64,000 nt of DNA from an uncultured Chitinophagaceae bacterium (GTDB taxonomy: Bacteria; Bacteroidota; Bacteroidia; NS11-12g; UBA9320). The DNA lies in contig CAZTGZ010000002.1 of assembly GCA_964613385.1 (NCBI GenBank), positions 83,419 through 147,418 of the forward strand. The letters are read 5' to 3'. Each line of letters starts with the position of its first letter. Position 1 is the first letter of the stretch. Below are positions 19,246-54,383 of this stretch, piece after piece. The notes beneath the pieces are model-generated. The model saw only the letters and a program-made list of their open reading frames with translations. It was not told the origin of the DNA and did no database searches. Position numbers and translations under genes: made by a program.

Positions 19246-22200
19246 GTTGTGTTCAAAGAACGGTTCTTCTGATTTTGAAAGCAAATCACAACCTTTCCTA
19301 ATTCTTTATTCATGATGTTCTTGTTGTGTTCAAAGAACGGTTCTTCTGATTTTGAAAGCAAATCACAACGGTGTAGATGCAATAGAGATTTCCCAGAAGG
19401 TTGTGTTCAAAGAACGGTTCTTCTGATTTTGAAAGCAAATCACAACTGTTGCACATAGCTCAACATGGCCATTGCGTTGTGTTCAAAGAACGGTTCTTCT
19501 GATTTTGAAAGCAAATCACAACGCTTTTTGTCAATTTGTGACAAGTCATATAAGTTGTGTTCAAAGAACGGTTCTTCTGATTTTGAAAGCAAATCACAAC
19601 AGCTCATGTAAACGCCCTTGCAATGGCGGCGTTGTGTTCAAAGAACGGTTCTTCTGATTTTGAAAGCAAATCACAACCTGTGCTTGTTGCTCTATTAAAA
19701 GAGCCTGTGTTGTGTTCAAAGAACGGTTCTTCTGATTTTGAAAGCAAATCACAACTGATTCGTAAAGGTTTTCAATCAAGGTCAAGTTGTGTTCAAAGAA
19801 CGGTTCTTCTGATTTTGAAAGCAAATCACAACCTTACTGGATTGCAACATTCCAGAATGTACGTTGTGTTCAAAGAACGGTTCTTCTGATTTTGAAAGCA
19901 AATCACAACTATTCATTCGTTCTCCTATCCACTTTGCAAGTTGTGTTCAAAGAACGGTTCTTCTGATTTTGAAAGCAAATCACAACATGAGCGTAGGACT
20001 CACCGGAGCTGTGGACGTTGTGTTCAAAGAACGGTTCTTCTGATTTTGAAAGCAAATCACAACCACCGAGCAGTTTAATATCTCCGCTGTCTTTGTTGTG
20101 TTCAAAGAACGGTTCTTCTGATTTTGAAAGCAAATCACAACGGCCGTCAAAAATGAACTTATCAATTATGTGTTGTGTTCAAAGAACGGTTCTTCTGATT
20201 TTGAAAGCAAATCACAACTATCAACCACAAACGTGTGCAATAGTTCAGTTGTGTTCAAAGAACGGTTCTTCTGATTTTGAAAGCAAATCACAACCATCTG
20301 CAGTAAGGTTCAATGAGGTTGGCAAGTTGTGTTCAAAGAACGGTTCTTCTGATTTTGAAAGCAAATCACAACTTATGCGCAAACCGCCTTAATACCATTG
20401 TCGTTGTGTTCAAAGAACGGTTCTTCTGATTTTGAAAGCAAATCACAACTGCGGAGCTGCACAATTTGTTGTCAGAAACGTTGTGTTCAAAGAACGGTTC
20501 TTCTGATTTTGAAAGCAAATCACAACTGTATATGGATGATCCAAAATCCTTGCTATGTTGTGTTCAAAGAACGGTTCTTCTGATTTTGAAAGCAAATCAC
20601 AACTTACAATGGGTTCTGCCTTTACGGCTTTTGTTGTGTTCAAAGAACGGTTCTTCTGATTTTGAAAGCAAATCACAACTGCAGGATTATTTGGATGTTG
20701 TCCGGTTGGTTGTGTTCAAAGAACGGTTCTTCTGATTTTGAAAGCAAATCACAACCGTTTAGGGAATACCCTTAATGACTTTTGTGTTGTGTTCAAAGAA
20801 CGGTTCTTCTGATTTTGAAAGCAAATCACAACACGTTGGTGTGTATGGCATAGCTGACGGACGTTGTGTTCAAAGAACGGTTCTTCTGATTTTGAAAGCA
20901 AATCACAACACGTTACGCGATTTGATACGGCTGAATTGAGTTGTGTTCAAAGAACGGTTCTTCTGATTTTGAAAGCAAATCACAACCTGACAATCTTGCG
21001 CGTTGAATGAATCCACGTTGTGTTCAAAGAACGGTTCTTCTGATTTTGAAAGCAAATCACAACGGCCGTCGAAAATAAACTTATCAATTACGTGTTGTGT
21101 TCAAAGAACGGTTCTTCTGATTTTGAAAGCAAATCACAACGTTTCATCTTTTCGTCGTTATCCCCAACTGGTTGTGTTCAAAGAACGGTTCTTCTGATTT
21201 TGAAAGCAAATCACAACTTAAAGACTGCATTATTGTACTTTCTGTCAGTTGTGTTCAAAGAACGGTTCTTCTGATTTTGAAAGCAAATCACAACCAATGC
21301 TACACAGGGCTTGAATGCGTTTGCGTTGTGTTCAAAGAACGGTTCTTCTGATTTTGAAAGCAAATCACAACGACTTTACGCGGCTTTACCTCTGTATTTA
21401 TGTTGTGTTCAAAGAACGGTTCTTCTGATTTTGAAAGCAAATCACAACTCCAGCAACGTGTTTATTGTTTGAAATCTGGTTGTGTTCAAAGAACGGTTCT
21501 TCTGATTTTGAAAGCAAATCACAACTTAACGAGTGCAACAACGTAACATGGGAAGTTGTGTTCAAAGAACGGTTCTTCTGATTTTGAAAGCAAATCACAA
21601 CGGCATGGTGTTTGGTTGGGTAGGTGTTGCGGTTGTGTTCAAAGAACGGTTCTTCTGATTTTGAAAGCAAATCACAACCAAGAAAGCGAAGAAACTCTTC
21701 AGGTGTTAGTTGTGTTCAAAGAACGGTTCTTCTGATTTTGAAAGCAAATCACAACTTAGTTACCAGCATAAGTGGCGGAACTTTTGTTGTGTTCAAAGAA
21801 CGGTTCTTCTGATTTTGAAAGCAAATCACAACCGTTCCTAACGTTACCCATGTAATAGATTCGTTGTGTTCAAAGAACGGTTCTTCTGATTTTGAAAGCA
21901 AATCACAACTCCTTCTGGCTCTATAAAAGTTCAAAGAAGTTGTGTTCAAAGAACGGTTCTTCTGATTTTGAAAGCAAATCACAACTCTGAGTGCGTTGAA
22001 TACTTGAACGCCAATGTTGTGTTCAAAGAACGGTTCTTCTGATTTTGAAAGCAAATCACAACTTACTTCATATGATTCCGGTGGTGGAAATGTTGTGTTC
22101 AAAGAACGGTTCTTCTGATTTTGAAAGCAAATCACAACTAAGGTAGTGTAGTTCGTTCCGTCAAATTTGTTGTGTTCAAAGAACGGTTCTTCTGATTTTG

Positions 22201-23290
22201 AAAGCAAATCACAACTTCTTCCGTGGAGTTTGTTAAACCATTGATGTTGTGTTCAAAGAACGGTTCTTCTGATTTTGAAAGCAAATCACAACAGTTTGTT
22301 ATTAGTTTGATTTTACTTCACTGTTGTGTTCAAAGAACGGTTCTTCTGATTTTGAAAGCAAATCACAACTGTCCGGCAATGCTAACAAATATCTACGCGG
22401 TTGTGTTCAAAGAACGGTTCTTCTGATTTTGAAAGCAAATCACAACTAGATGTTCATACATTTGGTCTTGTGTCATGTTGTGTTCAAAGAACGGTTCTTC
22501 TGATTTTGAAAGCAAATCACAACCAGATCCATACGGTGGAGAAGTGAAAAAGGTTGTGTTCAAAGAACGGTTCTTCTGATTTTGAAAGCAAATCACAACT
22601 ATAAACGTAAGCACCCCAATTTCCGTAAGGTTGTGTTCAAAGAACGGTTCTTCTGATTTTGAAAGCAAATCACAACCAAACCACAACGAAACATTAATTC
22701 AGAGAAGTTGTGTTCAAAGAACGGTTCTTCTGATTTTGAAAGCAAATCACAACGCGTCAATTCTAACTTATCAACCGCATACGTTGTGTTCAAAGAACGG
22801 TTCTTCTGATTTTGAAAGCAAATCACAACCGGTTGCGCCCGATACCGCCTCGCCAATTGGTTGTGTTCAAAGAACGGTTCTTCTGATTTTGAAAGCAAAT
22901 CACAACTATTCCTGACGTTCGTCATGGGCGTGACAAGTTGTGTTCAAAGAACGGTTCTTCTGATTTTGAAAGCAAATCACAACTACGCCTGTCAGCTCTC
23001 TTTTGTCTGCGAGGTTGTGTTCAAAGAACGGTTCTTCTGATTTTGAAAGCAAATCACAACTCCATCTCGAAAAGGTAATTCCGTCCAATGTTGTGTTCAA
23101 AGAACGGTTCTTCTGATTTTGAAAGCAAATCACAACTGCCCAGCCCCAGAGAGTTGTGTCAATACTGTTGTGTTCAAAGAACGGTTCTTCTGATTTTGAA
23201 AGCAAATCACAACAAAAATAGAAGTCGTATTCGTTCATGTACTGTTGTGTTCAAAGAACGGTTCTTCTGATTTTGAAAGCAAATCACGAA
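19246..23290. CRISPR. CRISPR array of about 53 repeats and 52 spacers; 47-bp repeat GTTGTGTTCAAAGAACGGTTCTTCTGATTTTGAAAGCAAATCACAAC, spacers 29-30 bp
   Basis: Regular 76-77 bp periodicity from 19246 to 23290. The terminal, cas-distal repeat (23244-23290) is degenerate at its last 6 bases (…CACGAA instead of …CACAAC). The repeat has GTTGTG/CACAAC termini typical of Bacteroidetes II-C arrays. Confidence 0.95.
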
Positions 23291-23456
23291 AGATTTATTC
23301 TATTGTGTAGCTAAAAATTGTTGTACTCAAAGACAAATATTGACAAACTGTTTCATGGGTTGGAATAGTCGTTTTTCCAGACATTAGTGTCTAGCTTGTA
23401 CCCGTGATGCCTACAGATGTCTAAATTGCATTCATGCATCGAAACTGCCTCAACAA

Positions 23457-25404: not shown

Positions 25405-26031
25405 CTAATTTTTATTATCTAAAGTTTGCTTTAATGTGCAATTCTTCTCTAACCTCAGCCCTTCCTCTCTCCAATTCACCGGATTATTCAAAATATAGGC
25501 TGAGATTCTATCATAAGATTTTTCATTTCGAATAATATGATCATGAAATCTGCTTTGCCATTGGATTTCAAACCCCATTCGATGGGCATGTTTTGTAACT
25601 GCCGATTTGTATGACCGGATAATACTGGAAACCGAATTGGCTTTGGGGGATATTTCAGACATTTTTTGATTTTTCTGTTGCAGTGGGCTCGTTGCATGCA
25701 ACGAGCCCACTGCTTCAAATTCCCTTATTGTCAAAATCCCATGCACATGATTCGGCATAACCACAAAGGCTCCCAATTCGACATTCTTTTGATGATATGG
25801 AATCTGATGCCATAAAAGTTCAGCTATAACTGCGACCGGAGAATAGTGCAATTTAGAATTTTCAATTTCCCCGAAATAATGCACCCTATGTTGAGTACAA
25901 ATCGTAATAAAATAAGAGCCGGGCCATCGGTAATCCCAGGATTTCAGCCTTAATGGAATGTGGTGAAACTTACTTTTAGAAGGGGTCATAGATTCGAAAA
26001 TCCATCTAATATCCCATTTCAAAAAAGTCAA
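25405..26031 (-). CDS. IS200/IS605-family Y1 (HUH) transposase-like protein, solo tnpA, possibly a REP-associated tyrosine transposase (RAYT)
   Basis: HUH motif (MPNHVHGIL) and a downstream Tyr-containing helix (IRSYKSAVTKHAH...QWQSRFHDHII). No adjacent tnpB. A shorter start at MTPSK (25989) is possible. Confidence 0.55.
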   Translation of the reverse strand: MTFLKWDIRWIFESMTPSKSKFHHIPLRLKSWDYRWPGSYFITICTQHRVHYFGEIENSKLHYSPVAVIAELLWHQIPYHQKNVELGAFVVMPNHVHGILTIREFEAVGSLHATSPLQQKNQKMSEISPKANSVSSIIRSYKSAVTKHAHRMGFEIQWQSRFHDHIIRNEKSYDRISAYILNNPVNWREEGLRLEKNCTLKQTLDNKN

Positions 26032-36726: not shown

Positions 36727-36999
36727 TTGAATATGCAAGATAATTGGTTGAATGAAAAACACAGATTGCCTGACCCTCCCGAAGGACTCAGGTCTAATGT
36801 TGTATTGGCCGTTCAAAGAGATATTCAATTCCAAAACAGGCGCAGAATATGGAAAAGAGTTCTGGTAGCTGCTTCTATTGTTTGGATATTGCTGAACATA
36901 ACGGTGATATTTGAGTTTGTAAAATCAGACCAAAATCCATTGGCCGATTATTACCGGGAATCAGATTCGGAATATTTAAATTTGTATAGCAATCAATGA
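36727..36999 (+). CDS. Hypothetical single-TM protein, possible anti-sigma factor
   Basis: Lies directly downstream of the ECF sigma gene. One TM helix. No recognisable motif. Confidence 0.3.
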   Translation: MNMQDNWLNEKHRLPDPPEGLRSNVVLAVQRDIQFQNRRRIWKRVLVAASIVWILLNITVIFEFVKSDQNPLADYYRESDSEYLNLYSNQ

Positions 37000-37436
37000 G
37001 AAGCAAGGCGTTATATATAATCATAGCCATCCTGATTCTATTGAATTTGTCTATGTTATGGCTTTTGTGGCCCGGTAAAAGAGGTGCGAAACCTCCAAAA
37101 GCGCCCTGGAAACACTTGAGCCGTGAATTGTCCCTGAATGAGGAGCAAACACGAAGCGTAGAAAAACTATTTCACCAACATCGAATGGAAATGGATGCAT
37201 TCCATGTAAAATCAGATCTATTAAAAGAAAATCTTGCGGACGCCCTCATTTCAGAAAACGATAGTCTCATCCAAACTGTCGCTGACTCTCTGAATGCCAT
37301 TCATCATCTGCGCGAACAGAAAAGGATACAACATTTTAGAGATATCAGTAAACTGTGTACGCCTGAACAGAAAAAGAAACTTAAATCTGTCCTGAGGAAA
37401 ATATTCAAACAGCACCCTCCCCCAAGGCGACCCTAA
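36996..37436 (+). CDS. Spy/CpxP-like periplasmic protein (LTXXQ motifs)
   Basis: Signal/TM N-terminus. Two LTXXQ-like motifs (LNEEQTRSV, CTPEQKKKL). Confidence 0.45.
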   Translation: MRSKALYIIIAILILLNLSMLWLLWPGKRGAKPPKAPWKHLSRELSLNEEQTRSVEKLFHQHRMEMDAFHVKSDLLKENLADALISENDSLIQTVADSLNAIHHLREQKRIQHFRDISKLCTPEQKKKLKSVLRKIFKQHPPPRRP

Positions 37437-38075
37437 TTATTTTGTGCAGGTGAGTTTGGAGGAATTCAGAATTTCTTCCTTCATCTTCTGATGCTTATCC
37501 CAATGTTCTTCAAATGTCTCAAAAATAATCATTGCCACACGGCCTGAGCAGGGAAATAAGATGATTTCACCCTTTTTGAAACTTCCTCTCGGATTCTTCT
37601 TAGCCTCTTCGTCATCGAAAGGAGGCGATTTAATGATATAATTTCTCCGCAATGCCTGAACCCCCTGGAATTGTATGGTATCATAGTCATCTTCTCCTGC
37701 TTCCGCAAAAAACTCAACCGTATCTGAGGGCATGTCCGGAGCCGGATTAAAATATCTACCTATGGTCTCTCCTGCCAGCCAGTCAGCTTCCTGATCTTCA
37801 GGGTTTTCATTAAAATAAAATGCCATTTGCACTCCGGCAAATTCTCCAACTCCCTCCCGGTCAATTTTGTAGGAAATACCTCCGTAGTTGTATGAATACT
37901 CCTCACTTACCGGTTCCTCCCATCCCTTGGGAAATGAAACTGTCATCCACTCTGTCTTCAATTCTCGTGAATCATTTTTTGTCACAATCCCCTTTACGGT
38001 GAGCCAGGTATACAGAAAAAAACCACCTGCCGCCAGGGCAATCAGGACCAATACGATTACAACTATTCTTTTCAT
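37437..38075 (-). CDS. Hypothetical membrane-anchored protein
   Basis: N-terminal TM helix. No recognisable domains. Confidence 0.35.
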   Translation of the reverse strand: MKRIVVIVLVLIALAAGGFFLYTWLTVKGIVTKNDSRELKTEWMTVSFPKGWEEPVSEEYSYNYGGISYKIDREGVGEFAGVQMAFYFNENPEDQEADWLAGETIGRYFNPAPDMPSDTVEFFAEAGEDDYDTIQFQGVQALRRNYIIKSPPFDDEEAKKNPRGSFKKGEIILFPCSGRVAMIIFETFEEHWDKHQKMKEEILNSSKLTCTK

Positions 38076-38235
38076 ACTTTCACAAATCTACATATGTTTT
38101 AGAATTTCAACTATGCAATTGTTAAAAATCATTTTTTAAAAAAACACATTTTCAGGCGATTCCTAAAGAATACATACAAAATTCTCCTTTAGTTGCGTGC
38201 ATCTCTCTTACCACCGGAATGCAGAATTCAAATGC

Positions 38236-38889
38236 CTAAGAAACGATCTGAATATTAAAAGCCGCACTTTGCTTTGCGCCCCAAACACGCAGCCATAAAG
38301 GCAAATACATTTCTGTACCCCTGGCGGTGCTGATATCACCCAAATCCAGAATATGATCCGTTTTCCAGCCAAACGATTGTAGCAGTAAGCTCACGTCTTG
38401 CTTAGCTTCTGCGTCATTCCCACTTACAAAAACATGATGATTTCCATCGTTGATCATACCGGGATTCACCATCAAACCGCACCACATGGTGTTGAGCGTT
38501 TTAACCACTTTAACTTCCGGATAAGCCTGTTGAATCATCTCTCCCAATGATCCGGTATTAACCACGGATAAAACGGGTGGCATCCCCTGACTAAAATCAA
38601 GCGGATTGGAAACATCGATCAACACTTTGCCCCTCAGATTTGCCTCTCCCGCCATTTTCAAGGCATCCATCGTGCCGGCTCCGGAAGTACAGTTGATGAG
38701 CAATGATCCAAAACCGGCGGTATCGGCAAATGATCCTGCCAGGGCTTTACCGGCATGCTGTTCAACAAAAGATAAGGCCTTTGGATTGTCATGGGTTCGA
38801 GATCCCATCATTACTTCATGCCCGATTTCAATCAGTTTGGAGCCCAGGGTCTGCCCCACAGTTCCGGTTCCTAAAATGCCAATTTTCAT
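38236..38889 (-). CDS. NAD(P)-binding oxidoreductase (F420-dependent NADP reductase-like/ketopantoate reductase N-domain family)
   Basis: Rossmann motif MKIGILGTGTVGQTLG at the chosen start. The track ORF extends 7 codons upstream. Confidence 0.55.
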   Translation of the reverse strand: MKIGILGTGTVGQTLGSKLIEIGHEVMMGSRTHDNPKALSFVEQHAGKALAGSFADTAGFGSLLINCTSGAGTMDALKMAGEANLRGKVLIDVSNPLDFSQGMPPVLSVVNTGSLGEMIQQAYPEVKVVKTLNTMWCGLMVNPGMINDGNHHVFVSGNDAEAKQDVSLLLQSFGWKTDHILDLGDISTARGTEMYLPLWLRVWGAKQSAAFNIQIVS

Positions 38890-38972
38890 AATCGATGATT
38901 TTAGGGGCAATATATCTCTTTTCGACCGGAATATTCAAGACACCCCGACGAAGATATCGGACATGTAAACTA

Positions 38973-40544
38973 TTAATAATCTACGGTTTTAGTGGAAATC
39001 TTAGGTTCTATGTAAGTATATTTGATTTTCTTAGTGTCTGCGTTCTTTTTAAAATTAACCAGATACTCCATAATATCGTAATCCATGCTCTTTACATTGC
39101 CCGCATCTACGATCAACTCTGCACCTTCCTGAGTATCTTCCATCGTTTGTATGATTTTCGCCTTGTTTAGAAAAGTTACTTCTTCACTCAATGTCAGGAC
39201 AATACGGTCAGAGATATCATGGGTTTCATTCTTCAATAAATAGGCATTTCGATAATTATTGCGCAGGATGATAAAAAAACCAACGCTCAATCCAAATACT
39301 ATCCCTTCCAGCAAATCGCTGAAAATAACGCCCACCATGGTAACCACGTAAGGGAGGAATTGCTCCCAACCCAAACTGTACATTTGTTTAATCATGGCCG
39401 GTTTGGCGAGTTTAAAACCAACAACTATGAGCACCGAAGCCAATGCAGCTAAAGGGATCATATTCAGAATTCCTGGGATAAGTATGATACTCAAAACCAG
39501 AAAGATGCCGTGAAATATGGCAGAAACTTTGGTGCGCCCACCGCTTTGAGCATTGGCAGAACTCCGAACTATGACCTGAGTGAGGGGTAATCCGCCGATA
39601 AGCCCGGTTAAAATATTTCCAACACCCTGCGCTTTCAATTCGCGGTTCGTTGGTGTAGTGCGTTTAAATGGATCTATTTTATCTGTGGCTTCAACCGACA
39701 ACAGCGTTTCCAAACTCGCCACTACAGCAATGGTTCCACCAATCAGATAAGTATTTGGATTTAGAAATCCTGAAAAATCAGGCATAGTAAGTAAATTCCC
39801 CAAACCCTGAAGACCACCAAATGCCGGCAAATTCACCAAATGGGTCTGCTCGATTTCCAATCCGGTACCCAGGAAAATATTATAGAATAGAATTCCCGCC
39901 AACACCGCCATCAAAGGCCCTTGTACCCATTGAAAAAACTTCAGTTTCTTGAGCGCCTTAATCTCCCAAATCAACAGCAATACGAGTGACACCGCGGCAA
40001 TAATGATAGCTCCGGGACTAAACACATCCAACAGGTGAAACAATTCGCTTAGCGTAGTTTCTCCATCAATCTGATGAAATCCCTCATCACCTTCATAATC
40101 TTTATCATATCCGAAAGCATGTGGTATTTGTTTAAGAATGATGATAATTCCTATACCACTTAACATTCCTTTAATAACTGAAGATGGGAAATAATATCCA
40201 ATGATCCCTGCTCTGAGAAATCCCATCAACAATTGCAGGAGTCCGGCTACGATTACTGCCGGCAAAAAGAGCTCAAATCCCCCCAATTCTTTAATGGAGC
40301 TGAGCACAATCACGGCTAAACCGGCAGCCGGGCCACTCACCCCGATATGCGATCCACTCAATGCTCCAACCACAATTCCACCGATTACCCCGGCAATCAA
40401 TCCTGACATCAATGGTGCGTGTTCCGGCGCTCCCGAAGCCATGGCTATTCCCAAACACAGCGGAAGTGCAACAAAAAATAAAACTATGGAAGCAGGAAAA
40501 TCGTACTGTATATCTTTAAAATGATTCTTCATAAGCGTTGGCAT
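38973..40544 (-). CDS. SulP-family inorganic anion transporter with C-terminal STAS domain
   Basis: 523 aa, multiple TM helices, SulP signature region, C-terminal STAS-like domain. Confidence 0.8.
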   Translation of the reverse strand: MPTLMKNHFKDIQYDFPASIVLFFVALPLCLGIAMASGAPEHAPLMSGLIAGVIGGIVVGALSGSHIGVSGPAAGLAVIVLSSIKELGGFELFLPAVIVAGLLQLLMGFLRAGIIGYYFPSSVIKGMLSGIGIIIILKQIPHAFGYDKDYEGDEGFHQIDGETTLSELFHLLDVFSPGAIIIAAVSLVLLLIWEIKALKKLKFFQWVQGPLMAVLAGILFYNIFLGTGLEIEQTHLVNLPAFGGLQGLGNLLTMPDFSGFLNPNTYLIGGTIAVVASLETLLSVEATDKIDPFKRTTPTNRELKAQGVGNILTGLIGGLPLTQVIVRSSANAQSGGRTKVSAIFHGIFLVLSIILIPGILNMIPLAALASVLIVVGFKLAKPAMIKQMYSLGWEQFLPYVVTMVGVIFSDLLEGIVFGLSVGFFIILRNNYRNAYLLKNETHDISDRIVLTLSEEVTFLNKAKIIQTMEDTQEGAELIVDAGNVKSMDYDIMEYLVNFKKNADTKKIKYTYIEPKISTKTVDY

Positions 40545-40713
40545 ACAATAATACTAAAAAGGATTCACTTGATTTGTGTTATCGGACAGCACATCAATTG
40601 TACCATATAAATTCAAATAATGCTACTTATTTAGATCAAGTTCATTAACTATTCTTGCGACTGAAGAGTAAGTTAATAAAATTTCCATTTAGCAATACGA
40701 ATTTCAATGGTTT

Positions 40714-41080
40714 CAGAATGTGGGTCGTGGGCGGGGAACGGCCTGATTTGTCTTTTCGTAATCCGATTGGCTATGAAGGCGTGAAAACAAATTTTCGCAC
40801 CTTTATAGAGAAGTCTAGCGATGGGCGAACGGTTTATGTTCGATTGCCAGTCCAATTTTGTGATGATGAATACAAAATTCATTCAACACATATATATGAT
40901 GAAAGTGGCTCCCATCGCGGCTTACGCCGAATTAGCCTTAGCGGATAGAAAAGAGAAATTAAGCCTTGATTTTTTTTGCTTCTCCCGAAAGCTTTCGGGA
41001 TTGATCAAGCAAAAAAAGTTAGTGGGGTAACGTAGTTTTGTTTGAAGAGAAGATGACATTCGGGCAAAGCCCTAAAAACT
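40714..41080 (+). repeat. Copy A of a two-copy structured repeat of about 360 bp (unknown family) with nested hairpins
   Basis: Conserved blocks shared with 44671-45025 include GTGGG(C/T)GGGGAACGGCC, CTATGAAGGCGTGAA, GCGATGGGCGA…GGCTCCCATCGCGGC (an 8-bp inverted repeat GCGATGGG/CCCATCGC), TTAGCGGATAGAAAAGAGAAAT, AAGCCTTGATTTTTTTTGCTTC…GATCAAGCAAAAAAAG and GGGCAAAGCCCT. Copy A carries a perfect 16-nt palindrome, CCCGAAAGCTTTCGGG, at a hairpin tip. Confidence 0.7.
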
Positions 41081-41192
41081 TCAGCACATGAATTTAAGAT
41101 CAAATAAGTTGAGTTTTATAGAATCATAATTAGAAGGGCCAGTTGAATTTATATAAATTCTTTAAACAAGCGTAAATCTATATAAACTCAAT

Positions 41193-41747
41193 TTGGAGTA
41201 CCTTAGTGGCATGAAAATAATTGCTTTGATTCTGTCATCATTTTGGATCATATCCTGCCAGAAATCCGGAGATCACCACAATCATACCCATGCGGTCAAA
41301 GACCAAAAAGCACTTTCATCTAATAAAATTCCTGAATTCCAGGGACAAATCGACTCTGTTTCGCTGAAGACGCTATTGCAACGTTATTATACCGTAAAAA
41401 ATGCTCTGGTGGATGGAAATGCACGTGCCGCAGCGTTCACTGCCAAAGAAGCCAGCAACTTTGCAACCGGTGGAGATAGTGTTTTGCTTACCATTTCCGA
41501 TCAATTTCGGTTAATTTCTGAGAAGCAGGAATTGAGTTTACAACGCACCCATTTTTATACCCTAAGCGAATATATGTTCGCCGTAACTTCTAAAATTAAG
41601 CCGGATACCGCATCCATCTACCAACAATATTGCCCGATGGCCTTTGACGATCAGGGAGCCTTTTGGCTGAGCGATGAAGAGGAGATATACAATCCATATT
41701 TTGGTGAAGAAATGTTGCAATGCGGAATGGTCCAAAAAAAATACTGA
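41193..41747 (+). CDS. DUF3347-like lipoprotein
   Basis: Lipoprotein signal (LILSSFWIISC). His-rich stretch. CPMA…WLS…NPYFG…CG pattern. Confidence 0.45.
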   Translation: MEYLSGMKIIALILSSFWIISCQKSGDHHNHTHAVKDQKALSSNKIPEFQGQIDSVSLKTLLQRYYTVKNALVDGNARAAAFTAKEASNFATGGDSVLLTISDQFRLISEKQELSLQRTHFYTLSEYMFAVTSKIKPDTASIYQQYCPMAFDDQGAFWLSDEEEIYNPYFGEEMLQCGMVQKKY

Positions 41748-41748
41748 T

Positions 41749-42303
41749 ATGCATCCTGATTATATAACTTCCACAATCCGTCAATTCACCTATTACCGTG
41801 GTTTAGCCGAAAAGGCCATGGATCAGGTTTCTGACGAAGTTCTGTTTCAGATTCCTTCAGAAGATGGTAACAGCATCGCCATCATTACCAAACATTTAGC
41901 GGGGAATATGTTGAGCAGATGGACGGACATCTTTCAATCAGACGGTGAAAAACCCTGGAGAAACCGGGATGGCGAATTCGAAATGGATCATCATGATCGT
42001 CAGGCAGTTATGGCTTACTGGAATCAAGGCTGGAAATGCTTGTTCGACACCCTGGAATCTTTAAAAACCGAGGATTTGGAGCGCATCATATATATTAGAA
42101 ATGAAGGTCATACTGTGTTGGAAGCCATAAACAGACAATTATGTCACTATAGTTATCATATAGGACAAATAGTGATGCTGGCCAAAATTTCAAAAGGCTC
42201 GTCGTTCATTTCACTGTCCATACCGCGGAACCAGTCCACCCATTATAATCAGCAAAAGTTTGATGAAGCACCGGAAATACGACATTTCACCGACCGCGTA
42301 TAG
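41749..42303 (+). CDS. DUF1572/DinB-like protein
   Basis: The start is moved to the internal M at 41749 to avoid a 74-nt overlap with the upstream gene. Has a His-containing four-helix-bundle pattern. Confidence 0.45.
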   Translation: MHPDYITSTIRQFTYYRGLAEKAMDQVSDEVLFQIPSEDGNSIAIITKHLAGNMLSRWTDIFQSDGEKPWRNRDGEFEMDHHDRQAVMAYWNQGWKCLFDTLESLKTEDLERIIYIRNEGHTVLEAINRQLCHYSYHIGQIVMLAKISKGSSFISLSIPRNQSTHYNQQKFDEAPEIRHFTDRV

Positions 42304-42329
42304 GTCGGGCTTATTGTATATTTGAAGCC

Positions 42330-43160
42330 TTGAGTCTGAAAAGGAAAATTTTCTATGCTTTACCACCCTCATGGCGATTCTATGTGAGGCGAATCATTTG
42401 GCTGCCCCAGGACTGGATTGACAAATTGAAAGGTGATACTCCGGCCATGGTTCCACCAAGAGGTATGATTTTTACAGGTTCCGGAGATTTTATCCATCAG
42501 GGGGATAATTTCCTCAAACATTTTATAGAAAAAGGTGGCCTAAAACCCGGGGATGATGTATTGGACATCGGTTCAGGAATTGGAAGAATGGCCAGACCTT
42601 TAACCGCATTTTTGAATGCTGAGAGTCGGTACGAAGGATTTGATGTGATGGAAGAAGGGGTGAGATGGTGTCAAAAGCATATTACTCCTCTATACCCGAA
42701 TTTCAATTTTAAGCATGTCCCTTTACAAAATGGATTGTATACCAGGCAAGGCAAGAATGCAGCAGAATTCAGATTTCCATATGCCGACCAACAATTTGAT
42801 TTTGTGTTGTTGACCAGTGTCTTTACACATATGAAACCGGCAGAAGTAAAGCAATATTTAATGGAAATTGCCAGGGTAATGAAACCGGGAGCCAGAGGTT
42901 TTGCAACTTTTTTTGTGGTGGATGAACCTGCCAGACTTCACATGTTGAAACAGGAAGTAAATTTCTTTCCTGTGGAGAAGGACACACATTACCTGCATCA
43001 TGCGGATGTCGCAGAAGCCAATATCGGCTTTAAGACAGTTTTTATCGAAAGGGCATTATCCGCTGCAGGACTTACGCAAACAGGCTTTTTCCCAGGCCGG
43101 TGGAGCGGAAGAGAAGGTCACGACTTTCAGGATATCATTACTTTTAGCCGTAAGGCCTGA
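42330..43160 (+). CDS. Class I SAM-dependent methyltransferase
   Basis: Motif I VLDIGSGIGRMARPL and a post-I acidic residue. Confidence 0.65.
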   Translation: MSLKRKIFYALPPSWRFYVRRIIWLPQDWIDKLKGDTPAMVPPRGMIFTGSGDFIHQGDNFLKHFIEKGGLKPGDDVLDIGSGIGRMARPLTAFLNAESRYEGFDVMEEGVRWCQKHITPLYPNFNFKHVPLQNGLYTRQGKNAAEFRFPYADQQFDFVLLTSVFTHMKPAEVKQYLMEIARVMKPGARGFATFFVVDEPARLHMLKQEVNFFPVEKDTHYLHHADVAEANIGFKTVFIERALSAAGLTQTGFFPGRWSGREGHDFQDIITFSRKA

Positions 43161-43222
43161 GTAGGGGGTGGAAGGAAAATCCACAATTAGCTATCTTCGC
43201 TTTACCCTAACCCCTAAAACGC

Positions 43223-43627
43223 ATGAAAACAAATGAACAACTCTGCCAAATGTGCCATAAAAGGCTTATTGGCCGGTCAGACAAAAAATTCTGCGACGAT
43301 TCCTGTCGCAATGCCTACAACAACCAACTGAACAGTGACGTCAACAATATGATGCGACGTGTGAACCACCAGCTTCGCAAAAACCGCCGTATCTTATTTG
43401 AGCTCAGACAATTGGGAAGAACAAAAATCAACAAAATCGAACTCGTTGCCCTGGGATATTCATTTGATTATTTCACGAACCAATGGAAACAAGGCAGCAT
43501 TCCCGTTTCAGTTTGTTATGACACAGGACTGGTGCAGGAATCGGAACATACATATCAGATTTTATCTGCCGATCAAAACGAATTGCATCAGGTAAGCAAT
43601 TATTGGATCATTCAAAGAACCGGTTAA
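43223..43627 (+). CDS. Hypothetical protein with N-terminal CxxC…CxxC zinc-ribbon-like motif
   Basis: CQMCHKR…CDDSCRN. No other recognisable domains. Confidence 0.35.
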   Translation: MKTNEQLCQMCHKRLIGRSDKKFCDDSCRNAYNNQLNSDVNNMMRRVNHQLRKNRRILFELRQLGRTKINKIELVALGYSFDYFTNQWKQGSIPVSVCYDTGLVQESEHTYQILSADQNELHQVSNYWIIQRTG

Positions 43628-43804
43628 AATGTCCTTTAAAATGGATGTATGATTTTAACTTTATTTTTTTTAAGGTTAAAGTATGAGAAAAAAAGCTCAT
43701 CTTTGTGGAGTTCCTTTCCTGAAGAGCGTCTAATTCAGCGTATTTGTCGCCTTTAGAAGTCCTTTCCGGAAAGAGCAGTTTAATTTTTTTATTATTTTTT
43801 TATT

Positions 43805-44119
43805 ATGAACATTTTTGTAGCAAATTTAAATTTTCGTTTAACAAGCGATGACCTCAGGGAGGTTTTCGAAAACTTCGGTGAAGTAAGCTCAGCTAAAGTA
43901 ATTTCTGACCGCGACACCGGTAAATCAAAAGGATTTGGTTTCGTTGAAATGCCAAATGACAGTGAAGCAAACCAAGCCATTGCTGAACTTTCAGGAGCAG
44001 AAATTGAAGGAAAAGTTATTGCGGTAAAAGAAGCTTTACCAAGAGAAAACAGACCTTCAGGAAATTTCAGAAACAACAACAACAACAGAGGCGGTGGCGG
44101 AAACAACCGTCGTTTCTAA
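43805..44119 (+). CDS. RRM-type RNA-binding protein with Gly/Asn-rich tail
   Basis: RNP2 (IFVANL) and RNP1 (KGFGFVEM) motifs. C-terminal NNNNRGGGGNNRRF. Confidence 0.8.
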   Translation: MNIFVANLNFRLTSDDLREVFENFGEVSSAKVISDRDTGKSKGFGFVEMPNDSEANQAIAELSGAEIEGKVIAVKEALPRENRPSGNFRNNNNNRGGGGNNRRF

Positions 44120-44133
44120 AAGAATTGGAATCT

Positions 44134-44166
44134 AAAAAAAAAACCGGCCTAAGCCGGTTTTTTTTA
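44134..44166. terminator. Bidirectional intrinsic terminator between convergent RRM and yegP-like genes
   Basis: AAAAAAAAAACCGGCCTAAGCCGGTTTTTTTTT, a perfect GC stem flanked by A- and T-tracts. Confidence 0.75.
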
Positions 44167-44496
44167 TGCAGTTAAGTCTTCTATTCCGGCTTCCGGTGCC
44201 GTTCTCATCACGGATTCCACTCCGTTCTTCATGCCGCTTTCTGATGCGTACATCTGGCTGCTTCCAACCACCTGACCATTGGTGGCTTTCAGGTTAAAAT
44301 GCCATTTGTCGTTGGAAGCCTGCTTAATTTCAAACTTTCCTTCGTCCTGGGCATTCTTCTTCACACTCTCGGCTCCGCTTATGGCGCTCGCCTTTGTTTT
44401 GTACCCTTCGCTGGTTAAAATAACCTGTCCGTTTGCTGCTTTCAGGCGGAAATAATACTCCCCGCTCTTCTCACTTTGAAAAATTTCGAATTTCAT
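44164..44496 (-). CDS. YegP/DUF1508 (UPF0339) family protein
   Basis: Two tandem DUF1508 repeats (GEYYFRLKAANGQVILTSEGY and KWHFNLKATNGQVVGSSQMY). Confidence 0.75.
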   Translation of the reverse strand: MKFEIFQSEKSGEYYFRLKAANGQVILTSEGYKTKASAISGAESVKKNAQDEGKFEIKQASNDKWHFNLKATNGQVVGSSQMYASESGMKNGVESVMRTAPEAGIEDLTA

Positions 44497-44670
44497 AATA
44501 CTATAATTGCTAGTGGCTCAAAAATATACAATACCGCCGATTTTCATCTGAAGAAAATTGAAATTTATTCTTAAATGATTCTCCAATTGTTTGGCTCTTA
44601 CTAATTTTAAATCGACATCCAATAGAGATTTAAAAACTTTCCATTTTAGGAGCACAGAAGCAATTTGTTG

Positions 44671-45025
44671 CAGAATGCGGCCTGTGGGTGGGGAACGGCC
44701 TTATTTGTCTTTTCGTGAGCCGCTTAGCTATGAAGGCGTGAATACAAAATTTACAAATTCTAAAAAAAGAAAGCGATGGGCGAGCGATGACAAAAATTTT
44801 AAATCTTCATAACGAAAATTATTTTGCAACATGGAAAATGCCAATAAAAATAGCAAGCGGCTCCCATCGCGGCGAACGCCTTCATGGCTTTAGCGGATAG
44901 AAAAGAGAAATGAAGCCTTGATTTTTTTTGCTTCCTTTTTTTGATCAAGCAAAAAAAGGAAGTGGGGGTTTTCTGAACTCAATTAATGTAAGAACATGTT
45001 TGGGCAAAGCCCTGAAAACTGCATT
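44671..45025 (+). repeat. Copy B of the structured repeat of about 360 bp (see 40714-41080)
   Basis: Same orientation as copy A. About 75-90% identity in the conserved blocks. The hairpin tip is replaced (CTTTTTTTG instead of the CCCGAAAGCTTTCGGG palindrome) while the stem arms are retained. Confidence 0.7.
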
Positions 45026-45128
45026 TCATCCCACAATTTCAAACTTGAGAATTTAGCAGTTAAAGTCAAAATTGGAACTCTAACATGAATAGTTTAATTC
45101 CAATAAGCAAGTAGAAAATTATTTAAAC

Positions 45129-46658
45129 TTAAAATAACCTCTTCGTACTCCTTCTTCTCGTCCCCGACAATCCCAATACTCCCAAAATTCCCCTGGCAAT
45201 TTCACGCACTACCGTTCGGGTTATACTGTGGCCTGCAATCTTCTCCAGCGTGCTTTTCTCCTGTCTTCCGCTGGTTTTGGGCTTTTCTGCTTCAGCCGTT
45301 TCCGCTTTGGCCACCTCCAGTTTTTTATTCAACAGCTCATAAGCACTTTCCCGATCCACCGTATCTGAATACTTCGTCATCAACTGACTGCTTCTTAGGT
45401 TTTTCTTCTTCTCCTCTTCTGTAATCACATCCATACGGCTCATGGGCGCGGTAAGCAAGGTATGCACCAATGGGGTCGGTATGCCCTTTTCATTTAAAGC
45501 AGATATGAGGGCTTCTCCGATTCCCATGGCGGTAAGGATTTCATCGGTTTTGTAAAATTCCGTTATCGGAAAATTCTCAGCGGCCAGCTTGATGTCCTTG
45601 CGATCTCTGGCTGTGAAAGCCCGCAGCGCATGTTGAATTTTGATACCGAGTTGACTGAGTACCGCAGCCGGAATATCCGAAGGACTCTGGGTACAGAAAT
45701 AGATGCCCACACCCTTGCTTCGAATCAGCTTGATGATGGTTTCTATCTGATCCAGGAGCGCCCCGGAAGCTTCTTCAAAAATCAGATGGGCTTCGTCAAT
45801 CACAAAAATCAACTCCGGCTGATCCGCATCCCCTCTTTCCGGAAAGGACTGATATATTTCAGCCAGCAGACATAGCATGAATGTACTGAACAACTTCGGT
45901 TTTCCCTGAATATCATCCAATCTCAACACATGGATATACCCCCTGCCCTGTTCGTCTAATCTTAAAAAATCATCCACATCAAAACTCGGTTCTCCGAAAA
46001 ACATATCGGCACCCTGTTCTTCAATTTCTATCAGCTTGCGCATAATTGCACCCACCGTAGAAGTGGAAACCAGTCCATATTCCTTTTCAATTTCTTCCTT
46101 GCCATCGGACGAAATGAATTGTAGGGTTTTGCGAAAGTCTTTGATGTCCAACAAAGGCAGACCATGATCGTCGCAGTATTTGAAAATCAGGGAGATAAGC
46201 CCCCCCTGCGTATCGTTTAATCCAAGAATTTTGGTGAGCAGTACCGGCCCGAATTCCGATATGGTCGCCCGCATACGAACGCCCTCCTGAGCAGAAATGG
46301 TCAGAAATTCTACCGGAAACTGTTGCGCTTTCCAGGCTTCACCAATCAGGGCATGTCGTTCTTCAATTTTAGGATTGCTCACTCCGGGTTGAGAAATTCC
46401 GCTCAAGTCTCCTTTGATGTCCATTAAAATCACGGGAATTCCTTTCAGTGACAATTTTTCGGCAAAATTCTGAAGGGTCTTTGTTTTACCGGTACCTGTA
46501 GCTCCTGCAATCAATCCATGCCGATTCAGGGTTTTTAATGGGATTTTTACCGGCAATTGGGGTATGGCTTTCCCGTCCAACATGGCGGTTCCCATGACGA
46601 TGGAATCGCCTTTAAAAGTGTATTTTTCTGTAATCAGATTTTGAAATGCCTCTTGCAT
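45129..46658 (-). CDS. HerA-like/DUF853 family P-loop NTPase
   Basis: Walker A GATGTGKTKT, Walker B IFVIDEAHLIF. 509 aa. Confidence 0.7.
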   Translation of the reverse strand: MQEAFQNLITEKYTFKGDSIVMGTAMLDGKAIPQLPVKIPLKTLNRHGLIAGATGTGKTKTLQNFAEKLSLKGIPVILMDIKGDLSGISQPGVSNPKIEERHALIGEAWKAQQFPVEFLTISAQEGVRMRATISEFGPVLLTKILGLNDTQGGLISLIFKYCDDHGLPLLDIKDFRKTLQFISSDGKEEIEKEYGLVSTSTVGAIMRKLIEIEEQGADMFFGEPSFDVDDFLRLDEQGRGYIHVLRLDDIQGKPKLFSTFMLCLLAEIYQSFPERGDADQPELIFVIDEAHLIFEEASGALLDQIETIIKLIRSKGVGIYFCTQSPSDIPAAVLSQLGIKIQHALRAFTARDRKDIKLAAENFPITEFYKTDEILTAMGIGEALISALNEKGIPTPLVHTLLTAPMSRMDVITEEEKKKNLRSSQLMTKYSDTVDRESAYELLNKKLEVAKAETAEAEKPKTSGRQEKSTLEKIAGHSITRTVVREIARGILGVLGLSGTRRRSTKRLF

Positions 46659-54309: not shown

Positions 54310-54383
54310 TTGGGCATTGCATTTTTTTTGACTCCGTAGTTCAATTGGATAGAATGTCAGATTCCGGTTCTGAAGGTTGGGGG
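54310..54383 (+). tRNA. tRNA-Arg (anticodon CCG)
   Basis: Acceptor stem GACUCCG/CGGAGUC, D-arm GUUC…GAAU, anticodon stem UCAGA/UCUGA with loop UUCCGGU (anticodon CCG), T-arm GGGGG-UUCGAGU-CCCUU, discriminator A. No encoded CCA. Confidence 0.85.

Follow-up and report, generated by a model that had tools for sequence, protein, structure and literature searches.

The stretch of DNA analysed here (the window; 64,000 nucleotides of contig CAZTGZ010000002.1 from an uncultured Chitinophagaceae bacterium) carries two copies of a repeated element, designated A and B, which lie in direct orientation on either side of six genes. The gene content between the copies was found to be as described in the original prediction, which had been made by a model from the letters of the window; DUF3347, RRM_1 and DUF1508/YegP were identified by Pfam matches on the window proteins, while DinB, the methyltransferase and the zinc-ribbon homologue were named from orthologues. 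Copy B was retrieved when copy A was searched against the window using blastn (70.6% identity, 364 nt, E 1.3e-37), with a second collinear block joining the A-B match. A MAFFT alignment of A and B contained long exact blocks matching those first listed for the pair. No third copy was found in the window by blastn, nhmmer or the covariance model R1. The limits of the conserved core were set by alignment with copies from outside the window and differ by a few bases from those first proposed. The junction of copy B is ambiguous within a short repeat, which leaves its unit length at ~540-558 bp. The two copies and their flanking repeats are located as follows:

40605..40614, no strand: left direct repeat of copy A, ATATAAATTC
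40615..41150, plus strand: whole inserted unit of copy A, ~536 bp, bounded by the perfect 10-bp direct repeat ATATAAATTC
40713..41081, plus strand: conserved core of copy A (R1 297 bits, E 2e-68)
41151..41160, no strand: right direct repeat of copy A, ATATAAATTC
44563..45120, plus strand: inserted DNA of copy B, ~540-558 bp, absent from strains L042, L045 and L043
44568..44581, no strand: left direct repeat of copy B, ATTTATTCTTAAAT, with ATTTA as its perfect part
44670..45021, plus strand: conserved core of copy B (R1 357.9 bits, E 6e-83)
45121..45134, no strand: right direct repeat of copy B, ATTTAAACTTAAAA

Empty alleles of both sites were observed in relatives. Exact look-up of the RRM protein of the window retrieved L043 (Logan ERR15459717; 11.9 kb, 85-89% identical), in which the gene order is the same as in the window (ECF sigma factor, SulP, DUF3347, DinB, methyltransferase, zinc-ribbon, RRM, YegP, DUF853). 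The SulP-DUF3347 spacer, which is the site of copy A, measures 112 bp in L043 compared to 669 bp in the window, and the YegP-DUF853 spacer, the site of copy B, 73 bp compared to 632 bp. In L045 (SRR10609169) window position 44562 is joined directly to position 45121, the flanks being identical at 120 of 123 and 80 of 80 positions. The same junction without copy B is found in L042 (SRR10609165), and the flanks of L042 and L045 are 97-100% identical to the window. In the more distant relatives L024 and L028, at 81% and 72% protein identity, the spacers measure 153 and 208 bp. Covariance model R1 detected no copy in any of these relative loci. As both spacers are short in L043 and the junction of B is clean in L042 and L045, each copy appears to be an insertion of its own of ~540 bp. 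The copies had been described as brackets of a six-gene unit; this description was abandoned, as the block is present without either copy in L043, L024 and L028. A composite element carrying the six genes was rejected on the same synteny and because A and B are only ~65% identical. Judging from these alleles, A and B are independent insertions, and the six intervening genes belong to the ordinary resident DNA. The mobile or dispensable behaviour that had been suspected was borne out by the empty sites.

Homologues beyond the window were sought in GTDB (one genome per species; 185,579 other species representatives) using an exact 18-mer that is invariant in the family. The scan returned 23 loci, 13 of which were true homologues and the remainder chance 18-mers. 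All 13 lie in one metagenome-assembled genome (MAG), Bacteroidia bacterium ME2004-09-30_3300044641_group2_bin89 (JBIIVF01) from Lake Mendota, and the 18-mer was absent from all but one of the 185,579 representatives. The family thus totals 15 copies (A, B and 13 in the MAG), together with a 198-nt mini relative, also in the MAG. The MAG copies occupy unrelated loci, with four on one 26-kb contig, and are mutually 80-90% identical. Copy B is 72-74% identical to the MAG copies and A 61-66% identical to all others, B included, B being nearer to the MAG copies than to A. A search of JGI metagenome contigs with two different patterns gave no real member, IMG/VR gave chance 17-18-mers only, and no member was found in plasmids and phages. 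A six-frame peptide chimera of the element matched nothing among 5.8 billion proteins, and a full-text literature search returned no description of the element's motif.

Copy A is enclosed (536 bp) by its perfect 10-bp repeat, and L043 retains ...CCATAT at the point matching the left repeat. The empty site of B reads GAAGAAAATTGAA joined to ATTTAAACTTAAAAT; in the filled site, the left junction reads ...GAAATTTA joined to TTCTTAAAT... and the right junction ...GTAGAAAATT joined to ATTTAAACTTAAAAT. The repeat at B is perfect over ATTTA, with imperfect similarity out to 14-27 bp. The longest flanking repeat in the family is a perfect 21-bp repeat (AAATATTGTCGGCATACGCAA) at a MAG copy (L006, 5334-5354 and 5896-5916), which encloses 541 bp; it is placed a short way upstream of the point at which a 162-aa gene and a 456-aa ORF, a putative MnmE, start in divergent directions. 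Several other copies have 9-12-bp repeats at varying distances. A repeat of at least 9 bp within ~100 nt of the core was present at 6 of 12 copies, compared to 4% of same-geometry controls overall and 14% of those in AT-rich DNA (p ~0.003), and where the repeats are clear the unit measures 505-541 bp. When the copy boundaries were checked for target-site duplications, flanking direct repeats were thus found, the length of which varies (5, 10 and 21 bp).

Consistent terminal inverted repeats (TIRs) were not found among the copies; the same-copy score was 8.1, compared to 7.8 +/- 1.4 for a mismatched-pair null, and the best inverted-match sequences at the ends differ from copy to copy. No fixed motif was found before the left ends, where the flanks end in ...ATATAAATTC, ...GAAATTTA and ...GGCATACGCAA. 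The interior is where the copies are most alike; the resemblance tails off by about -35 to -88 on the upstream side and by +25 to +99 on the downstream side. Derivation of the copies from a circularly permuted circle of ~540 bp was considered, the five copies with clear repeats being of similar length (505-541 bp), and was rejected, as the offsets across all copies do not compensate.

A common fold was derived for the core from an RNAalifold consensus, refined by hand, with pairing statistics taken on 12 sequences. The plus strand forms ~68 nested pairs. In a tally of 73 pairs across the 12 sequences, 97.8% of cells were paired and 11 pairs (31 cells) were changed on both sides. None of 500 shuffles matched the observed pairing and covariation, and when the partners were slid by 1-3 columns, 45-56% of cells paired and no more than 3 pairs covaried. 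G-U and U-G pairs account for ~11% of cells, including a U-G to G-U flip in helix P1; as these cells would be C-A on the other strand, the fold fits one strand only. RNAfold gave -127.2 kcal/mol (z -5.4) for the plus strand of copy A and -107.1 for the minus strand, and -115.8 kcal/mol (z -4.8) and -98.9, respectively, for copy B, an advantage of 17-20 kcal/mol for the plus strand. The conserved nested secondary structure that had been proposed for the repeat was therefore supported, both by covariation and by the further copies in which it was found, and one of the inverted repeats named at the outset, GCGATGGG/CCCATCGC, is real and corresponds to helix P4 of the family fold.

The fold starts at its 5' end with a G-rich motif (CUGYGGGNGGG), followed by a 5' domain which is closed by P1 (15 bp, pyrimidine against purine) and which holds P2, P3, P3a, P4 and a variable insert, V1 (~70 nt, inside P4, without a conserved fold). 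Downstream of this domain come, in order, UUGAY, an 18-bp A/U-rich hairpin (S2, loop RUCAAG) and a small GGGC...GCCC hairpin. Fourteen of the 15 pairs of P1 are invariant in the 12 sequences, with one pair alternating between U-A, U-G and G-U, while five pairs of S2 are changed on both sides. The parts are placed as follows:

40740-40757 with 40947-40965, plus strand: helix P1 of copy A
40818-40825 (GCGATGGG) with CCCATCGC, plus strand: helix P4 of copy A
within the core 40713..41081, plus strand: 3' hairpin variant of copy A, carrying the insert CCCGAAAGCTTTCGGG
44697..44714, plus strand: 5' strand of P1 of copy B, GGCCUUAUUUGUCUUUUC, pyrimidine-rich, partner 44900-44917
44773..44870, plus strand: helix P4 of copy B (44773-44785 with 44857-44870), enclosing V1; 11 pairs, 100% of cells paired
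44900..44917, plus strand: 3' strand of P1 of copy B, GAAAAGAGAAAUGAAGCC, purine-rich
44918..44922, plus strand: UUGAU of copy B, complementary to the loop of the 3' hairpin
44926..44967, plus strand: 3' hairpin S2 of copy B; 18 pairs, pyrimidine 5' arm and purine 3' arm, loop AUCAAG at 44944-44949
45002..45012, plus strand: terminal hairpin GGGC-AAA-GCCC of copy B, invariant in the 12 sequences

In one MAG copy (L021, 720-1151, minus strand) a 78-nt insertion was observed in the 3' strand of P1, after GAGAA; this copy is either disrupted or furnished with an extra domain.

The register of S2 (5' UUUUG-CUUCC-U7-G, loop AUCAAG, C-A7-GGAAG-UGGGG) is supported by covariation in B and the 13 outside copies, among which the combinations CUUCC/GGAAG, CUGAC/GUCAG, AUUAC/GUAAU and CUUCG/UGAAG occur. 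In the 3' domain of copy A a GC hairpin (CCCGAAAGCUUUCGGG) stands in place of the second U run, which limits A to pairing of U8GCUU with AAGCA7. The pairing TTTTTTTTGCTT/AAGCAAAAAAA put forward in the original prediction is thus possible in A, while the covariation seen in B and the 13 outside copies speaks for the different register of S2. Similarly, the supposed replaced tip of B (CTTTTTTTG) proved to be the 5' arm of the S2 hairpin, and A is the copy with an arm replaced.

The complementarity between UUGAY and RUCAA is conserved, with a coupled switch from U-A to C-G in 6 of the 12 sequences, and is kept in the mini relative. As the linker between UUGAY and the 18-bp hairpin is only 3 nt long, both pairings cannot coexist in one molecule, and the complementarity may therefore represent a transient alternative fold or an intermolecular contact; one possibility is that it joins molecules into dimers or higher assemblies. 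For the 3' domain, a U.A-U triple helix or an H-type pseudoknot was retained as speculation only. It is suggested by the mini relative, in which C, C and G occupy corresponding positions in the two U runs and the A run (chance ~1 in 8); however, that C could also belong to an extended hairpin, and linkers of 1-3 nt do not give enough length.

The mini relative (L003, 3764-3961, plus strand; 198 nt, R1 44.8 bits, E 2e-8) lies 1.2 kb from a full copy (L003, 2202-2556, minus strand), in inverted orientation, and a 321-aa gene separates the two. The 5' motif (CUGCGGGUGGG) is retained in the mini relative, while P1 and P2 are built from entirely other sequences (GAACGAAAU/GGAUUUCGUUC) and the P3-P4 domain of full copies gives way to a short inner hairpin. 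CUUGAU is also kept, followed by a hairpin with a rewritten stem (UUUACUUUCUUUC/GAAAGAAAGUAAA, pyrimidine against purine) and the same AUCAAG loop, and the 3' end is again a GGGC...GCCC hairpin (GGGCUGGUAAGCCC). The outer five pairs of S2 are all wobble pairs in the main family and read C-G, U-G, U-A, mismatch and G-C in the mini relative. Given these rewritten stems, the family is defined by its unpaired motifs and the positions of its helices, and not by helix sequences.

At the 5' end, all complete copies share an open frame of 39-100 codons, the peptides of which are similar (...GGKWPYLSFR.PLGYGGVKT...). This frame has no start codon in four copies, its stops vary over 39-100 codons and it is frameshifted in one copy. 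Several frames on both strands are equally open, no open reading frame (ORF) with a start and stop conserved across the copies was found, and within the conserved blocks none of the three codon positions varies. The ORFs at 40655-40948 and 44591-44812 were found to share residues through nucleotide identity, as had been stated. A small protein or type I toxin was rejected; no start or stop is conserved, and a hydrophobic frame (VAPIVAF...) meets TGA in copies reading AAAUGAAGCC.

In 8 of the 13 MAG cases the copy and the gene downstream of it are convergent. The neighbours are unrelated genes, and no recurrent family emerged when the flanking ORFs were compared all against all; a cis-regulatory leader or riboswitch was rejected on these grounds. 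As both window copies diverge from the upstream gene, transcription of the plus strand would have to start in the ~170 nt before the core, which lie partly within the inserted unit. A moderately conserved upstream box (TTTTGAA...GAATAT) was observed at -45 in the MAG copies. A terminator scan flagged the 3' hairpin of B, which is followed by UUUUCU, in that copy only, and several MAG copies are preceded by a small hairpin and a T run. Targets of the G-rich 5' motif were not enriched in the window (4 found compared to 4.6 expected).

The element was compared with known RNA families and classes of mobile element. At gathering thresholds, Rfam 15 identified only a tRNA at 54330 in the window; at E<10 over 40300-45400 the two cores overlapped a few chance matches (sR17, mir-4679, STnc420 and MIR5225) at 17-20 bits, well below gathering, and a MAG copy and the mini relative gave one chance match (21 bits compared to a gathering threshold of 95). 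These searches agree with the earlier failure to match the element to a known RNA family. A group II intron was rejected, as the sole weak match is outside the element, at 41770-41877 (16 bits, E 5.4), and on the opposite strand. Within the same region a strong bidirectional intrinsic terminator (AAAAAAAACCGGCUUAGGCCGGUUUUUUUUUU) was observed at ~44130-44230, between the convergent RRM and YegP genes, which accounts for the weak sRNA-like Rfam matches there.

Examples of miniature inverted-repeat transposable elements (MITEs) include Correia, RUP and the P. gingivalis MITE (PMC4596501). The element shares with this class its many non-coding copies, insertion in spacers, empty sites in relatives and short flanking direct repeats, and differs in having neither shared TIRs nor a target duplication of fixed length (10 bp, 5 within 14 bp, and 21 bp). 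A related autonomous insertion sequence (IS) sharing its ends was found neither in the window nor across ~90 kb of the MAG loci. The label of a MITE-like or repetitive extragenic palindromic (REP)-like mobile repeat therefore holds for the mobile behaviour and not in the strict sense, given the lack of consistent TIRs, the varying repeats and a length of ~540 bp compared to a palindrome of 20-40 nt. Palindrome-associated elements derived from IS200/IS605 (PATEs), and REP sequences with their associated tyrosine transposase (RAYT), have strand-specific folded ends without TIRs and rely on a Y1/HUH enzyme in trans (PMC6006769, PMC3733652). They make no target duplication, use a fixed motif of 4-5 nt and have short subterminal hairpins, whereas the element has a large internal structure, direct repeats and no common flank motif. 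A PATE was rejected because direct repeats are present and the left flanks lack a common motif.

The original prediction had linked the repeat to a Y1 transposase at 25405. This ORF (25405-26031, minus strand, 208 aa) contains a HUH-like motif (NHVHGIL) and has no TnpB or IscB neighbour; it has no Pfam match at E<1e-3, Y1_Tnp included, and nothing element-like was found nearby, so that the link was not sustained. A REP or REPIN with RAYT was rejected on the same ORF, which is without element-like flanks, and on the unit length of ~540 bp. A perfect 34-bp palindrome (GCAGTGGGCTCGTTGCA/TGCAACGAGCCCACTGC) was also observed inside the reading frame of this ORF, at 25680-25713.

Non-coding repeats with a conserved fold have precedents in other groups. 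Kristoffersen et al. reportedly described in 2011 the interspersed repeats bcr1-bcr18 of the Bacillus cereus group, some of which have a predicted conserved RNA fold. The bcr repeats are non-coding, 100-400 bp, intergenic and strain-variable and encode no transposase, and those of MITE type have terminal inverted repeats and a fixed target duplication. The element is similar in being a non-coding, strain-variable intergenic repeat with a conserved fold and no encoded transposase; it differs in having no sequence relation to the bcr repeats, in belonging to another phylum, in lacking TIRs and a fixed duplication, and in its larger fold (~68 pairs, two domains). Orphan HEARO copies without a protein gene are also known. 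HEARO, the IscB omega RNA, is a ~300-nt structured RNA of a mobile element with many copies per genome (PMC9755519). Unlike HEARO, the element has no Rfam match at E<10 to that family and no IscB, TnpB or HNH gene beside any of its 15 copies. The ornate RNAs GOLLD, ROOL, OLE and raiA are long, intricate non-coding RNAs, some of them from lake metagenomes (PMC2864571, PMC10861870); they usually occur once per genome or prophage and are far more widespread, and none matches the element. By analogy, the element resembles MITEs and bcr repeats in behaviour, and orphan HEARO/omega or ornate RNAs in form. It would be filed as a non-coding interspersed element with a conserved RNA structure, found in no RNA catalogue.

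The best explanation, to which a probability of roughly 0.6 is given, is that the copies represent a new family of mobile, structured-RNA-bearing, non-coding interspersed elements of ~540 bp, the interior of which would be selected for a one-strand fold, most likely as RNA. The element would have come to lie in AT-rich intergenic spacers as a discrete unit of DNA, by spreading or by gain and loss, and its central ~355 nt would be kept by selection because the plus strand of the window folds into a multi-helix structure. The unit would be transcribed from sequences within it or just upstream, RNA rather than DNA would be the selected form, and copy number would rise by duplicative insertion through an enzyme acting in trans and not encoded beside the copies. 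Several observations weigh against this explanation. The known range is two genomes only, both uncultured freshwater-type Bacteroidia. Most helices never vary (as in P1, with 14 of its 15 pairs), so that the support for them is largely conservation and not covariation, and several of the covarying positions split just two subfamilies and may be single events. Promoter and terminator scans of the element gave nothing convincing; the TTTTGAA...GAATAT box is a poor match to the sigma-70 consensus and is also unlike the Bacteroidetes consensus TAnnTTTG. The unit ends are poorly conserved and the repeat lengths differ, so that no transposition chemistry can be named. Finally, the polymorphism of B could be a precise deletion between imperfect repeats, although insertion is the simpler reading given that the outgroups are without the element.

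A non-autonomous transposon of MITE or PATE type acting at the level of DNA, in which a transposase encoded elsewhere (for example of the HUH/Y1 type) would recognise a fold of single-stranded DNA and RNA would play no part, is unlikely. The many non-coding intergenic copies, their presence or absence among strains and the flanking direct repeats would all be explained, the window does encode an ORF with a HUH-like motif, and, as G-T wobbles are tolerated in single-stranded DNA hairpins, the strand asymmetry is also compatible with DNA. However, the score for TIRs did not differ from its null, conservation is lowest at the termini and highest in the interior, which is the reverse of what recognition by a transposase predicts, and direct repeats of 5, 10 and 21 bp are unlike a fixed staggered cut. 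IS200/605 types make no target duplication and need a fixed motif, which the left flanks do not share; the 208-aa ORF has neither a Pfam match nor element-like sequence alongside; and a nested, long-range fold of ~68 pairs far exceeds the needs of known single-stranded DNA transposon ends. An RNA-mediated route, by which a reverse transcriptase, or another enzyme acting in trans, would copy a fold-recognised, promoter-bearing RNA into AT-rich DNA between genes, as a bacterial counterpart of short interspersed nuclear elements (SINEs), would explain the 5-21 bp duplications, the missing TIRs, the selection on an internal fold and the lack of a linked protein gene, and is considered unlikely as it stands.

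It is quite improbable that the copies are passive intergenic repeats of the REP, bacterial interspersed mosaic element (BIME) or enterobacterial repetitive intergenic consensus (ERIC) type, carried in the mRNAs of neighbouring genes as terminators, insulators or mRNA stabilisers. Their position in spacers, often between convergent genes (8 of 13), the terminator-like 3' hairpin and UUUUCU of B and the small hairpin and T run ahead of several MAG copies would fit such a role; however, none of the other 14 copies has a U tail behind the hairpin, the opposite strand has an A run after the hairpin, the window copies are antisense to, or divergent from, the genes able to read into them, and a conserved fold of 355 nt, with several domains and with unpaired motifs that are invariant, is not needed by a terminator or stabiliser. 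It is very improbable that the copies are resident genes for trans-acting regulatory RNAs, a family spread by ordinary duplication and inherited vertically without mobility. Identities of 80-90% within one genome would fit old paralogues under selection, and the gradual fading of similarity into the flanks and the clustering (four copies on the 26-kb contig, two in the window) point the same way, but B is missing from strains with 97-100% identical flanks and both copies from a relative with the same gene order, A and B are both lineage-specific at ~65% identity and so derive from different source copies, and only two genomes were found by the 18-mer scan of GTDB and the search of JGI metagenome contigs. 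A duplicated small protein gene or gene fragment, the case which the original prediction had named as its own refutation, is hardly credible: the frame open in every complete copy and its similar peptides speak for it, and the missing starts, shifting stops, frameshift, equally open other frames, blocks invariant at all codon positions and unmatched peptide chimera against it. As far as sequence analysis goes, this case was ruled out.

If the fold acts as RNA, the family would be a new class of large structured RNA of ~355 nt, with a clear architecture and conserved unpaired motifs, that is absent from Rfam. Its behaviour is unusual in combining transposon-like presence and absence in near-identical strains with apparent selection on the interior fold and not the ends, and with no transposase travelling along, and it raises the question of how a structured element that has neither a protein nor TIRs moves in Bacteroidota. 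Such elements also break assemblies, create spurious ORF calls and mimic the boundaries of gene cassettes, as was the case here. The narrow known distribution, two uncultured freshwater-type Bacteroidia genomes, limits the immediate impact.

Further features were observed in the window. The region 36996-41213, from the ECF (extracytoplasmic function) sigma factor to DUF3347, varies among relatives; the window and L043 carry genes for a 212-aa protein, an F420-type oxidoreductase and SulP there, and L028 and L024 carry other genes. The SulP protein of the window has no homologue above 61% identity besides its own record. A CRISPR array at 21017-23333 consists of ~30 copies of a 47-nt repeat (GTTGTGTTCAAAGAACGGTTCTTCTGATTTTGAAAGCAAATCACAAC) with ~30-nt spacers and a period of 77, and gives rise to spurious ORFs with a repeated peptide at 21749-23238. 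A perfect 18-nt inverted repeat (AGTCCTTTCCGGAAAGAG / CTCTTTCCGGAAAGGACT) was found at 43758-43775 and 45833-45850; its arms are 2 kb apart, one of them a short distance upstream of the RRM gene, the other within the DUF853 gene, and each contains the palindrome CTTTCCGGAAAG.

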